DNA of 64,000 nt, taken from Longimicrobiales bacterium (GTDB lineage Bacteria > Gemmatimonadota > Gemmatimonadetes > Longimicrobiales > Gaopeijiaceae). The position numbers were made by a program. Shown one piece after another: positions 30,801-39,800 of this stretch (position 1 is its first letter; each line of letters begins with the position of its first letter). The stretch covers positions 2,016,001-2,080,000 of the forward strand of contig OZ242008.1 of NCBI GenBank assembly GCA_965204735.1. The letters are read 5' to 3'.

Positions 30801-33800
30801 GATCCGATGCGACGCCTGCCGTTCGATCGCTTCCCGCGTGAGCACCCTGTTGGCGATCCCCCTTGCCAGCCTGTCGTACACGCCGTGGGCCTCCAGGAGG
30901 GGCAAGCGCACCTCGACGACGACCGGGGGCAGCTCGATCGCCTTCACGGCCATCCCCACCCGCACCGCCGTGGTGCGTCCCGGGTGGAGGACGACGGGCT
31001 CGGTGCGAGGCGCGTAGCCGATCATCTCCACCGTCAGGCGCGTCAGGACCGGGGCCAGGTCGTCGAAGGCGACCGCGCCGCGGGCGTCTGTGGGGCGAGT
31101 CTCGCCGGTGAGCAGCGAGACTGCCGCGCCTTCGACGGGCCGCCCCGTCTCCGAGTCGGCGACGGCGACCACGAGCCGGGACGGGGCCGCCGGGTCGTCC
31201 ACGTCGGCCCGAACCATGCGAAGGACGAAGTCGCCCGAACGACGGACGCTGAAGCCGCCCTGGAGCGGCTCGTAGCCGCTTCTGCGCACCACCAGCTCGT
31301 ACTCGCCCACCACGGCGTCGAAGGATGCCCGTCCGTCCAGGTCCGTGACGTGGCGGCCGACGACGCCGGAGAGCTCGATCACCGCGCCCGCCAGCGCCTC
31401 CCTGCTGACCGAATCGCGCACGTAGGCGGTGATCAGCACCGAATCGGCACCGCCCTCCGCGACCTGGACGCCGGCCGCCGTCGGGAGCCCGGCCGGCAGG
31501 AGCCCAGCCAGCAGGAGAGCTGCCCGAACGACGGCGAGTCCCGGGCTCCGTCGGTCCCGCACGCGACGGCGCCGGGCCGGCACAACCGAGTCTCCCAGCA
31601 TATCGACCTCCTTGCGGCTCCTCGGACCTCCTTGCGGCTCCTCGCATGATAGGGGAGGAACGACGGGCCGCGCCACCGTCGGAGTCCCCGTAGGGACGCC
31701 GGAGTCCCCGCAGCGACGCCGTCAAGCTGCCGGGACCCGCACCGCCGGGACCCGCACCGACCCGCTGCCGGGCACCCGCACCGCCAGGACCCCCACGGAC
31801 CCGCTGCCGGACACCCGCACCAGGACCCCCACGGACCCGCTGCCGGACACCCGCGCGGGTTGTACGAGCGGCCCACTGTTGTACCAGCGGCCCGATCTCT
31901 GTATACTGGAAGGAAGCGAACGTGGTTCCGGCGGTGCGCCGCGCGTGTCTTCCCTAGCCGGGCGCTTGGCGCGCCTCGGGGCCGACGGACTTTTCCGGAG
32001 GACGCCCGTATGAGCAAGTACGCCTTGGCGCTGGCGGCGGCGGGCGTCGTCGGCATCGGCTTCGCCAGGCCCGCTCCCCAGGGAGGCCCGTCAGGGCCGG
32101 CGAGCGTGTCGTCCTGGGCCGACGAACCCGTGGCGAACGAGGTCGTCGAGGAGTACTGCCTGCGCTGCCACAGCGAGCGGCGGCAGGTCGGCGGCTTGGT
32201 GCTCGAAGGCTTCGACGTCGCCGAGGTCGAGGGGCGGCGCCCGACGGTCGAGAAGATGATCAGGAAGCTTCGGGCCGGGATGATGCCGCCCCGGGGAGTT
32301 CGTCGGCCCGAGGCGGACGTGCTCTCGGCGATGGCCGTGGAGCTGGAGGCCGAGATGGACCGGATCGCGGCCGAGAACCCCGATCCGGGCCGGCGCACCT
32401 TCCAGCGCCTCAACCGCGCCGAGTACGCCGCGGCGGTCAAGCACCTGCTGGGAATCGACGTGGACGTGGGCGCCTTCCTCCCGCTGGACACCAAGAGCGC
32501 CAACTTCGACAACATCGCCGACGTGCAGATGCCGTCGGCGACGGTCATGGAGGGCTACCTGCGGGCCGCGGGCCGGATCAGCCGCCTGGCGCTGGGCGAC
32601 CCGGAAGCCGAGGTGGGCTCGACGATCTACCGCATTCCCCGCGTGGCTTCGCAGAAGGAGCGCGCGGAAGGCGCCCCGGTCGGGACGCGAGGCGGACTCT
32701 CGGTGGTGCACAACTTCCCCGCCGACGGCAAGTACGTCTTCCACGTCATGCCCTACGCCGCCGTCGAGGGAGAGGTCTTCGGCCGCACCTTCGGCTTCGA
32801 GCAGATGGAGGTCTCGATCGACGGCGCCCGGACGGCGCTCCTGGACGTGGACCGCTGGATGTCCGAGTCCGAGCCCACGGGCCTCAACATCCGGAGCGAC
32901 TCGATCTACGTGACCGCCGGACCCAAGCGGGTGTCGGTGGCGTTCGTCCGCCAGTTCGAGGGGGTCGTGGACGACCTGATCCGGCCGATCGACCACACGC
33001 TGGCCGACGGGCAGATCGGGATCGGCCTGGGCGTCACGACCCAACAGCACCTTCAGCGCGTCACGATCCTGGGACCCTTCGGCGTCACGGGCGTCTCCGA
33101 CACCCCGGCGCGGCGCTCGATCTTCACCTGTCGGCCCACGGCGCCGGAGGAGGAAGAGCCCTGCGCCCGCGAGATCGTCGAGCGGCTCGCGTCGCGGGCG
33201 TACCGGCGCCCGGCCGTCGCAAGCGACGTGGAGGGCCTCTTGGGCTTCTATCGGAAGGGAGCGGCCGACGGCGGCTTCGAGGCCGGAGTCCGCACCGCCC
33301 TTCAGGCCGTGCTGGCCAGTCCCCACTTCGTCTTCCGCCTGGAGAAGCAGCCCGAGGGGGCCGAAGGAGCGTACAAGATCGCGGACTTGGACTTGGCGTC
33401 GCGCCTTTCGTTCTTCTTGTGGGGGGCGCCGCCCGACGAGGCGCTGATGGAAGTCGCCCGGACGGGAGCGCTCTCGGAGCCCGCCGAGCTGGAGCGTCAA
33501 GCACGTCGAATGCTCGGCGACCCGAGGGCCGAAGCGCTCTCCACCCGCTTCGCCGCCCAATGGCTTCGCCTGCAGGACCTGGAGAAGATCCACCCCGACG
33601 CCCTGACCTACCCCTACTTCGACGAGACGCTGGCCGACGCCATGCACCGGGAGACGGAGCTCTTCTTCCACCACCTGGTGAAGGACGACCGGCCCGTCAC
33701 CGAGATGCTCACCGCGGACTACACCTTCGTGAACGAGCGGCTGGCCCGGCACTACGGGATCGCCGGCGTCACCGGCCCCGACTTCCGGCGGGTCTCCCAC

Positions 33801-36800: not shown

Positions 36801-39800
36801 TCGGCCCAGCAGATCGGGAAGCAGGGCGGCTTCACGGCGCTCCACTACGCGGCGCGGGAGGGCTACCGCTCCACGGCGGCGCTGCTGGCCGACAGAGGCG
36901 CAGAGATCGACCAGCCCACGGAGGGCGACGGTTCTTCCCCCATGCTGGTGGCCGTCGTCAACGGCAACTACGACTTGGCGCGGGACCTGCTGGAGCGAGG
37001 CGCAGACCCGAATCAGGTCAGCGACGACGGCGCCGGCCCCCTCTTCGCCACGCTGAACATCGAGTGGTCGCTGCGGACCTGGTATCCCCAGCCCCAGGCG
37101 TTTCGCCAGCAGGAGACCGGGTACCTCGACTTCATGAGGCTGCTGCTGGAGGCCGGGGCGGACCCGAACCAGCGGACCACCACCCACATCTGGTACGCCG
37201 CCTACAACGCCGGGCGGATGGGCGTGGACTTCACGGGCGCGACGCCCTTCTGGCGCGCCGCCTACGCGACGGACGTGGACGCGATGCGCCTGCTGGTCGA
37301 GCACGGCGCCGACCCCGAGATCTGGACGATGCGGCTTCCCGACCGACGCCGCTTCCGCGACCCCAACTTCCCCGACACCCGGCCCGAAGATGCTCCCCTG
37401 GACCCGTCGGGGTTGCCGCCCGTCCCGGTGGGCGGCCCGGCGGTGCATCCGCTGCACGCGGCCTCCGGCGTCGGCTTTGGCACGTCGCGGGTCGCGCAAC
37501 AGCACCGTGCCGTGCCCGACGGCTGGCTGCCGGCCGTGCGGTACTTGATCGAGGAGGTGGGCGTGGACCCGAACCTTCGCGACAAGGACGGCTACAACGC
37601 GATCCACCACTCGGCGGCCCGGGGCGACAACGAGACGATCCTGTACTTGGTCTCCCAGGGCGCCGACGTCCACGCGATCAGCCGGCGGGGCCAGACCACG
37701 GCCGACTTGGCCAACAGCCCCGAGCAGCGCGCCCAGCCCCATCCGGCGACGGTGGCGTTGCTGGAGAAGCTCGGCTCCCGCAACAGCCATGAGTGCCGGT
37801 CGTGCGGGGGGAGCCTCTAGCGATGGCCGGCGTCTATCGCTTGAGCGCAGCGGTGGTTGTAGTCGCGGTTGCGGCTGCGCTTCCGGCCTTCCCCGCCCCG
37901 GCGGCCGCCCAGGACACGGAGTGGAACCGCTACACGCTGGAGGGGCTGGAGGGCGTGCACGTCCGGGCCGAGACCAACGAGGCGTGCCAGGGCGCCGGCT
38001 TGTCGGCCGAGTCCGTTCGAGCCGACTCCGAGGCCGCGCTGAGCGAAGCCGGCGTGCCGTTGCTGACCCGCGAGGAGATGCTGGCCGCGCCGGGCCTCCC
38101 GGAGCTCCGCGTCACCTTCGAGTGCGGCGGCGGGGTTGCGGGCGTGGTGGGCTACTCCGTTTCCGTCCGGGTCCAGCAGGCCACCCAGATGATCCGCGAC
38201 ACCCAGATCACCCACTCGGAGGCGGTGACCTGGTACGCGACCGCGGTGGGCGTTTCCGAGGCTGCGGGCACGGCTGCGGCCATGGGGACCGCGCTGGGTG
38301 CGAAGCTGGCGGAGTTCGCCGAAGCCTTCGAGGCGGCGAACGCGGAGGAGGAGGGTTCCGGCTAGTCGGTTGGCGACGACGGCGCCTGGTCCCACAGGCG
38401 CCACCTTTCCATCGCCCAAGACGCGAGCCGCTCCGTCCTCTCGACCAAGGCAGCCTTGTCGAATGTGCCTCCGTACCTCGGACAACTTGCGAATTTTCTG
38501 ACACTGACATAGCAAGATGCTTTGTACAACTCCGTTGCCGCCATCTTCTCCTGCGGACTCTTGTGGCCACACCTTGAGTTCATCCTGCTTGTCAGTGGAA
38601 GGATGTTGCCAAGTCGGTCGACGTGTTCCCAGTATTCGTACTGGTCGGCGAATCCGTAGCTAGTCACATCAAACAGGTCGGGGTCGGAAGGCAAGATGTG
38701 CTCTCTAGTAATCTTCTTCCGAACCAATTCTCTCAGTTGGTCCAAGGTATGCGGCCTGCCTTGGCGGTACTCGTCGTACCTTATCACCAGGTGACCCAGT
38801 CCGGCGTCGCCGAATGTCGAGGCGGTCAAGACTTCCCGTAGAACATGCTCAGGCATGAACTTTAGTGAAATCCACCTAAGCCAGTTTCCGATACTTGGTG
38901 CCTCCATGGTTCGTGACTTATGCGACAGCTTCCCAATGTCCGCAGCCGAGCTGCTCCTCCCTATCTTGTACACCCGCATGTCGCAGACCTCCAGGCATTT
39001 TAGCAAATCCGGCCCGTCATCAATGAATGCCTTCTCCAGAATTCTTCGCTGATGAAGACGGATCAAGAGTGGATACAGCCTTGCGGAGAAGCCGAGCACG
39101 ACAAATAGCCTATACAGCCTTGCGTCGGTCTCGATCCGTTCCACCAATTCTCGGAACGCCCGAAAAAACTCGCAGAGATCGTGAGTATAGTCATCGATAA
39201 ACGACTTGAGAGTGCTACCGTCGTCGCGATGCTTGAGCATCGTCTGTTTCAGAAGTCCGTCAAGCACGGTGCGGTCAGAAACCTTGTACTCCCCACCACC
39301 TATAATTGCAACCTCTGGATGGTCGTAGGCAAGGTAGTGGTATCGAAGAACCTCATCCTCCAAAAAGTTGGCTGCGTATATGTGATCTACTCGGTACTCT
39401 TCATTCCGAACGAGTTCCTTTATGCGGTCAAAGGCAACAAAGCATTCTCCAAACCGCCGATTGATCGCCTCGTCCAGCTCGCCGTCCAGGTAGCGATTGG
39501 AGTAATAGATCAGCAGGGCCTTCGCCTTGTCCATTGCAGACAGCGCCAGGCCTCGGTCGTTGATCGTCTGGAACATGCGGATGGCACGGCCTGTGTCGTT
39601 GGCGCTGAACTGGATGACCTCCATTCTTGTGATGGTCTGGATCCACCGCCGCACCCGGTCGTCGCCACCATCCTCATGCAGAGATTGGGCCCGGTCACAT
39701 GCGATTTGATAAGCGTCACGAAGTCGTCGCCTGCCACCGGTGAGCTCGAACGGGTCGCCATCCGCAGTTTGTCGCCGGATCCGGCGGACGGGGCGGCAAT

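Follow-up and report, generated by a model that had tools for sequence, protein, structure and literature searches.

An ankyrin gene fixed behind a PSD–DUF1552 gene pair in a Longimicrobiales genome as the probable accessory of a putative periplasmic oxidoreductase

In a 64,000-nucleotide window of contig OZ242008.1 from a marine Longimicrobiales bacterium, an ankyrin-repeat gene stands third in an operon, behind the genes of a diheme PSD/DUF1592 protein and a DUF1552/HXXSHH protein. We consider it highly probable that ankyrins in this position are accessories of their operon rather than free host-mimics, and we lean slightly towards reading the operon as a periplasmic oxidoreductase with a dedicated, AnkB-like ankyrin accessory subunit. 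The PSD–DUF1552 pairing itself is already published.

The three genes lie on the forward strand, with the PSD gene at 32010..34481 (823 aa), the HXXSHH gene at 34505..35893 (462 aa; Pfam HXXSHH, E 1.2e-89) and the ankyrin gene, with Pfam ankyrin repeats, at 35907..37820 (637 aa), separated by gaps of 23 nt and 13 nt. All three products carry export leaders, and the genome encodes TatC and cytochrome c assembly proteins. Coordinates, Pfam matches and motifs bear out the description in the genome-wide survey's note of a two-CxxCH PSD protein, a Tat-signal HXXSHH protein and an ankyrin in fixed order. A fourth gene follows on the same strand at 37823..38365, encoding a 180-aa protein with a leader peptide and two cysteines and without a match in Pfam or NCBIfam; it occurs only after the window's operon subtype, in a single copy in this genome, and its homologues were found at 53 of the 120 loci examined. 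A sigma-70 promoter and a terminator were sought without a match, and no RNA holder was among the matches listed.

The genome holds five HXXSHH genes and six open reading frames with Ank_2 matches, five of which sit after an HXXSHH gene, as the note had stated; the sixth ankyrin is free. Its remark on one copy with an inserted gene is likewise correct, the insert being a 1563-aa cadherin/Ig-domain gene between the PSD and HXXSHH genes, and the reported ankyrin identities of 49-54% were reproduced at 49, 54, 50 and 53% to the window copy.

The PSD protein matches PSD3, PSD5, PSD4, PSCyt3 and PSD2 in Pfam, all five above the cut-off, and carries a Sec-type leader, read by eye, and two CxxCH heme c motifs at residues 50-54 and 676-680. 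The N-terminal motif belongs to a class I cytochrome c domain (C50, C53, H54, with M92), and the second heme site comprises C676, C679 and H680 with H670. Since M92 and H670 are invariant in 85/85 rows, we infer that both hemes are six-coordinate, one His/Met and one bis-His. The structural model (pLDDT 89.6) further contains a Cys374/Cys385 pair, a helical PSD core and a CBM-like jelly-roll at about 198-360, the last recovered in a fold search with Z 10.3 and an rmsd of 2.6 over 107 aligned residues. Foldseek returned nothing for the model at E 0.001, and the helical core was absent among the matches listed in a wider fold search, which does not amount to a new fold. PDB sequence searches, single and profile, gave nothing meaningful for either the PSD or the HXXSHH protein, and NCBIfam has no model for either.

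The HXXSHH protein bears a twin-Arg leader whose motif arginines are conserved in 100 and 101 of 101 rows, and belongs to a family of 13,646 cluster representatives at E 0.001. Its predicted structure (pLDDT 89.9) has the core fold of alkaline phosphatases and sulfatases: the best match in a fold search was the sulfatase 2qzu (Z 16.0, rmsd 4.4, 282 aligned), the best 50 matches listed were all of the alkaline-phosphatase-superfamily type, and the top matches were hydrolases or transferases. With Foldseek, the best hit was a partial match at E 4.5e-5, with a TM of about 0.37.

Like sulfatases and NPPs, the HXXSHH protein keeps the order and spacing of the superfamily's active-site motifs; unlike them, it appears to have a histidine at the nucleophile, a histidine for the first-site aspartate and no second metal site, and it has a fixed cytochrome partner. 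The active site was mapped by motif spacing and predicted secondary structure, and the nucleophile site was placed where the helix that ends in L-T-G begins, from the motif spacing in NPPs rather than by superposition. So aligned, a histidine falls at the T of TFPNH and another at the D of D-x3-H, and position 122, where the hydrolases of the superfamily have Ser, Thr or Cys, is histidine in 103/104 rows. In place of the SDHG motif stands S-[APG]-[MIL], residues 395-398 reading S-[GPA]-[MIL]-[GSA], and position 58, the place of the strand-1 aspartate by the same spacing, is N, H or M. H122, H342, H346 and H403 are present in all 128 HXXSHH genes wherever the column is covered and have equivalents in Sphingobium members of 25% identity; H347 is also conserved. 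Judged by motif spacing, histidines would thus stand in for the nucleophile and for the acidic ligand at one of the metal sites while the second site is lost, so that the protein is probably not a standard hydrolase. Compared profile to profile, HXXSHH and six NPP sequences showed no similarity. The window's protein is of the H58/E55 subtype and has a Cys179-x5-Cys185 loop. A His2-Met copper site formed by H58, H122 and M397 was considered and set aside, since M397 occurs in only 54/106 rows of a wide alignment, and can serve as a lead within the H58 subtype alone.

Judging from their sequences, the operon ankyrins form a single exported family with CxxC at the end. A Sec-type leader, read by eye, is followed by N-terminal repeats, a variable linker at about 210-295, C-terminal repeats that carry conserved inserts, and a terminal N-[NS]-H-x-C-x-x-C, with C630 present in 71/71 rows and C633 in 72/72. 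The ankyrin lies directly downstream of the gene pair in 78/80 related loci, the other two ending at a contig edge, and all 74 complete ankyrins of these 80 loci end in CxxC. PSD, HXXSHH and ankyrin copy numbers are equal within genomes (9/9/9 in one and 12/12/12 in another). Ankyrin distances track HXXSHH distances with a rho of 0.74 over 69 pairs, against a maximum of 0.22 in 2000 permutations; the loci are kin, so only a handful of independent lineages underlie these correlations. All ankyrin-linked HXXSHH proteins examined have both loop cysteines and those without them had no ankyrin, and a few Cys-loop proteins lack a nearby ankyrin (the second copy at locus L116, and L136 and L150).

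Several known systems resemble parts of this arrangement. He et al. 2017 (PMC5615132) described a PSCyt3/PSD4 plus DUF1552 gene pair, whose function is given as unknown in the accessible parts of that paper. Both features of that pair, the PSD2-5 plus PSCyt3 domain set and an adjoining DUF1552 gene, are found here, whereas the fixed third gene, the N-terminal cytochrome c domain and the Cys loop set the present operon apart; the main text and readable supplements of PMC5615132 mention no ankyrin. In AnkB-KatB and Cj1386-KatA, according to the accessible text of PMC10294975 and PMC12754779, an ankyrin gene shares an operon with a heme enzyme and is proposed to stabilise the enzyme or handle heme. 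There too the ankyrin stands in an operon with its enzyme and has an export leader (here read by eye), but the partners here are PSD and HXXSHH proteins instead of a catalase, and the ankyrin, unlike AnkB and Cj1386, has about 600 aa, conserved inserts and a terminal CxxC, with binding to its partner putative. DUF1501 with PSCyt2/PSD1 forms a parallel gene pair from different Pfam families, and DUF1501 was not found in this genome. As a lead only, DUF1501 clusters were the nearest to HXXSHH in the Atlas, with scores of 0.81-0.82.

The operon is enriched in the family Gaopeijiaceae, as the note had claimed. In our own samples, HXXSHH was found in 34/60 other genomes of the family and, in a second count, in 37/41 family genomes, compared with 4/39 in one sister family and 4/40 in another (8/79 together), one of the latter four being an unpublished genome, G390. 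Genomes carry 2-16 paralogous operon copies. In a planctomycete-type clade, 0/80 PSD-DUF1552 loci have an ankyrin, and none was seen in Sphingobium and Planctomyces records with the pair; in Sphingobium herbicidovorans, genes for cytochrome c' and cytochrome b come after the pair.

This distribution bears on whether the ankyrins are host-directed eukaryote-like proteins riding in the operon, or the whole operon serves symbiosis. The family enrichment, the up to 16 copies, the inserted cadherin gene and the reported ankyrin richness of sponge Gemmatimonadota (accessible text of PMC8163846) would all suit such a role. Like the sponge-symbiont ankyrins counted by Pfam in symbiont genomes in that text, the proteins here have ankyrin repeats, but each is tied to its operon, with one ankyrin for every enzyme copy, and they are not restricted to host-associated bacteria: ankyrins of this type in the same gene order come from sediment genomes and from records whose titles name soil, groundwater, mud and sand, and in the cultured soil strain Novosphingobium sp. 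KACC 22771 the gene pair has a related ankyrin behind it. The best effector model, moreover, scored 100.6 bits against an NCBIfam cut-off of 600 for Dot/Icm ankyrin effectors, and we regard a host-directed role as improbable. The note's view of these ankyrins as operon parts rather than symbiosis factors thus gains from copy numbers, tracking distances and the operon's occurrence in free-living bacteria, and needs qualifying in that PSD-DUF1552 operons do not always include the ankyrin.

HXXSHH could be a divergent hydrolase or transferase, with a single zinc site where His122 acts as the nucleophile or as a base, hemes that sense redox state or act as a scaffold, and the ankyrin still an accessory. 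All top structural matches, three ligand positions kept at one metal site, the CBM-like domain and the carbohydrate role suggested in the accessible parts of PMC5615132 are in keeping with this, yet the nucleophile and second metal site seem gone, a fixed diheme partner is more than a hydrolase requires, and the Sphingobium pair precedes further cytochrome genes, which leaves it unlikely. Somewhat less likely still, the ankyrin may be a thiol-disulfide or metal-delivery factor whose terminal CxxC works on the HXXSHH Cys loop directly or inserts the metal. A CxxC ankyrin follows 101/105 scorable H58-type genes, and ankyrins were seen only beside Cys-loop HXXSHH; however, in the N58 and M58 subtypes the terminal CxxC is missing or respaced, and is therefore not essential to the ankyrin family. 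The ankyrins that partner N58-type genes mostly lack the terminal cysteines, and other ankyrins space theirs as C-x11-C or C-x3-C, so that a structural disulfide fits better.

Under the oxidoreductase reading, whose redox mechanism we hold to be as likely as not, HXXSHH would be exported folded via Tat and hold one metal through H342, H346, H403 and probably H122, the last occupying the place of the superfamily's Ser/Thr/Cys nucleophile. The enzyme would oxidise a small organic substrate and pass electrons to the bis-His heme of PSD, then to its His/Met heme and on to the respiratory chain. By analogy with AnkB and the catalase KatB, the ankyrin, which would also be periplasmic, may bind HXXSHH near the Cys179-x5-Cys185 loop and stabilise or mature the enzyme, and paralogous copies would differ in substrate.

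A literature search that covered few subscription journals found no report of an ankyrin beside DUF1552 or of the DUF1552 fold. New here are the modelled HXXSHH fold, its candidate catalytic residues, the cytochrome c domain, CBM-like sandwich and putative six-coordinate hemes of PSD, and the operon ankyrin family with its CxxC, its tracking of HXXSHH and its Cys-loop link. HXXSHH, a large uncharacterised family, now has a predicted fold, residues that are candidates for catalysis and a cultured strain for tests. Ankyrin proteins are read in surveys as marks of symbiosis, and the accessible text of PMC8163846 names Gemmatimonadota and Luteitaleia as two of the ankyrin-rich lineages. Across six family genomes, the operon share of ankyrin genes was 5/6, 5/6, 3/4, 3/3 and 2/2, with one exception (G053) in which 3 of about 14 ankyrin frames are operon-linked and about 11 free; in the other five genomes most or all ankyrin genes are operon-bound, and the operon does not account for every ankyrin in the family. 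Ankyrin counts therefore need gene context. A bolder reading, which we advance tentatively and think rather more apt to fail than to hold, is that PSD-DUF1552 constitutes an undescribed class of periplasmic oxidoreductases, in which the scaffold of an alkaline phosphatase came to hold a redox metal bound by histidines alone and was coupled to a diheme cytochrome, one large branch relying for its maturation on a dedicated ankyrin family that acts on the Cys-x5-Cys loop. If so, expansion of this class would explain much of the ankyrin excess that has been reported for sponge Gemmatimonadota and Acidobacteriota.

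The operon comprises three genes on the + strand of the window: a PSD/DUF1592 gene (32010-34481; Pfam), a DUF1552/HXXSHH gene (34505-35893; Pfam) and a gene with ankyrin repeats (35907-37820), separated by gaps of 23 nt (PSD-HXXSHH) and 13 nt (HXXSHH-ankyrin). The Longimicrobiales genome, a single contig of 4.14 Mb (completeness 98%), holds five HXXSHH genes and six ankyrin ORFs, and five of the six ankyrins are positioned after an HXXSHH gene. Five operons were found, one with an inserted gene, just as the genome-wide survey's note had described, and the insert is a cadherin/Ig gene (1563 aa) between PSD and HXXSHH; the ankyrin identity of 49-54% that it gave was reproduced against the window copy, to which the HXXSHH and PSD paralogues are 60-66% and 52-59% identical. 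By eye, each of the five operon ankyrins starts with a hydrophobic leader; all share conserved inserts and a linker that varies, and they end in cysteines (C630 and C633, kept in 71/71 and 72/72).

The inserted cadherin/Big_9 protein lies at L001:10345-15036 (-), and two far longer ORFs resemble it at their C-termini (C1:597809-610918 and C1:2876696-2887612). The sixth, free ankyrin (L004:6129-7826, -) has no visible leader and no terminal CxxC; genomes G055 and G054 each have a single free ankyrin frame of similar length. Immediately beyond the window operon lies a GmrSD-type restriction endonuclease gene (38362-40170, -) in a region of lower GC (about 0.585 in 38001-40000). The gap 5' of the operon holds short direct repeats (31605-31845; three of 39 nt and two 20-nt pairs), and divergent from it, at 29113-31676 (-), a peroxiredoxin-family gene sits between two small carboxypeptidase-regulatory-like plus TonB plug genes.

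When the 80 best of 546 loci with relatives of the window HXXSHH were inspected, an ankyrin was found directly downstream of HXXSHH in 78 (the other 2 stop at a contig edge), a PSD gene was visible upstream in 77, and a terminal CxxC was present in all 74 ankyrins uncut by a contig end, a uniformity that is overstated because these are the closest matches. The nearest named relatives among the matches listed are Longimicrobiales of the Gemmatimonadota, many of which we take, from isolate labels, to be sponge-derived. Related loci also come from records titled soil, groundwater, mud and sand, and from Acidobacteriota and Gammaproteobacteria; the cultured soil isolate Novosphingobium sp. KACC 22771 has the same gene order. 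The last 129 ankyrin residues found matches in 33/151 genomes of the phylum and 13/121 Acidobacteriota. Copy numbers of PSD4, HXXSHH and ankyrin are equal in some genomes (9/9/9 in G005, 12/12/12 in G193), and HXXSHH and ankyrin counts are unequal in others (2 vs 4 in G166, 6 vs 5 in G182, 5 vs 6 in G184, 2 vs 3 in G185). Across 69 rows (65 of 97 pairs kept after near-duplicate removal, plus the Longimicrobiales genome's own copies), HXXSHH and ankyrin distances correlated with a rho of 0.74, whereas 2000 permutations gave 0.22 at most, and the ankyrin's nearest neighbour was within HXXSHH's three nearest in 40/69, showing joint inheritance of the two proteins, not contact.

Individual loci depart from this layout: PSD and HXXSHH are separated by insertions of ~4.5 kb (L165) and ~1.1 kb (L108, reading like a transposase), and a gammaproteobacterial locus (L159) is ordered HXXSHH-ankyrin-PSD. 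The HXXSHH copies of genome G209 resemble Gemmatimonadota ones (74% identity for L061), which may reflect transfer or binning. Ankyrin was absent at 80/80 loci of a planctomycete-type clade (in 38, the downstream sequence ran to 2.5 kb or more) and from the Sphingobium and Planctomyces records of PSD-DUF1552 loci.

HXXSHH and ankyrin subtypes correspond. Of 110 HXXSHH genes with H58, 101 have a CxxC ankyrin downstream and 5 are edge-cut; the 4 without a directly downstream ankyrin comprise one with an upstream ankyrin, one sharing in tandem and two without. For 17 N58/M58 genes, no ankyrin of the terminal CxxC form was seen, counting the motif up to 25 residues from the end; a related ankyrin lies downstream in 11 and upstream in 4, and 2 lie close to where a contig begins, one of these showing a partial match upstream. 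Some N58/M58-associated ankyrins bear respaced cysteine pairs. Among a further 19 intact HXXSHH genes from four genomes, 17 have an ankyrin; the two without are an orphan (L150) and the sole gene lacking the Cys179-x5-Cys185 loop (L166). The Planctomyces, Sphingobium and planctomycete-type proteins, which come without an ankyrin, also lack both loop cysteines. A link between Cys loop and ankyrin is a lead at this stage, because the association draws on a handful of independent lineages.

A PDB sequence search with HXXSHH gave no match. A structure model built from 110 sequences (pLDDT 89.9, pTM 0.88) resembles sulfatases and nucleotide pyrophosphatases (NPPs; Foldseek best E 4.5e-5, TM 0.37; VIA-align best Z 16.0, rmsd 4.4, 282 aligned). 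We mapped the active site through motif spacing against NPP sequences and predicted secondary structure, presuming the roles of the NPP residues. By motif spacing, H122, nine residues ahead of T131, would stand at the place of the NPP nucleophilic Thr; H342-x3-H346 would replace the NPP D-x3-H, H403 would be the counterpart of the final His, and both the Asp of strand 1 and the SDHG ligands appear to be lost. An HXXSHH-NPP profile comparison found no similarity, and the mapping is therefore one that we infer. In the 128 HXXSHH genes with scores of 450 bits or more, H342, S345, H346, H403, C179 and C185 are invariant, H122 occurs in 127/127 covered genes and H347 in 127/128. The twin-Arg leader is conserved, and TatC is present in the genome.

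The PSD model (residues 38-795; pLDDT 89.6, pTM 0.90) pairs an N-terminal domain resembling the YhjA cytochrome c domain, at a middling score (Z 7.8, 84 aligned), with a CBM36/6/35-like region at about 198-360 (Z 10.3); its helical core has no counterpart among the structural matches listed. C50, C53, H54, M92, H670, C676, C679 and H680 are invariant (85/85), a pattern suggestive of a His/Met heme and a bis-His heme that are both probably fit for electron transfer; cytochrome c assembly genes are present. In Sphingobium herbicidovorans, genes for cytochrome c' and cytochrome b come after the PSD-HXXSHH pair, and a TonB receptor and an AraC regulator are encoded nearby, a context consistent with electron delivery to the membrane.

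Most likely, catalysis would fall to HXXSHH, with a single metal bound by histidines, the PSD protein would take electrons away via two hemes, and the ankyrin would be a periplasmic accessory that binds HXXSHH and matures or stabilises it. Export leaders, heme motifs and linkage are read from sequence and the fold from a model; metal, substrate, direction of electron flow and binding we infer.

HXXSHH is enriched in this family, occurring in 37/41 of its genomes versus 4/39 and 4/40 of two sister families (34/60 in a family sample taking in less complete genomes). Operon-linked ankyrins make up 5/6 in G055, 3/4 in G054, 3/3 in G057 and 2/2 in G048. G053, where long free ankyrins are numerous, has just 3 linked ones among about 14 frames. 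Its long free ankyrin-repeat ORF clusters (G053:C1, about 250000, 1604700-1613100, 2979800-2982900 and 3849900-3861000) are the better candidates for eukaryote-like proteins.

According to portions of PMC8163846, ankyrin proteins account for 0.25% of genes in sponge Gemmatimonadota, compared with 0.09% for seawater; the figure for Luteitaleia is 0.55%. Ankyrins linked to catalases are described in parts of PMC10294975 and PMC12754779, and the domains are merely listed in excerpts of PMC2754498, PMC7789669 and PMC6004670. The PSD-DUF1552 pair is already known: PSCyt3 genes adjoining DUF1552, of unknown function, appear in the available part of PMC5615132, which does not mention ankyrin. Among the papers listed by our literature searches, none deals with the three-gene PSD-DUF1552-ankyrin form. 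To the known pair, the present analysis adds a fixed ankyrin, a predicted histidine-remodelled alkaline phosphatase fold for HXXSHH and the putative Cys-loop link, and the five operon ankyrins, as the survey's note rightly judged, should not be counted as free host-mimicry genes.
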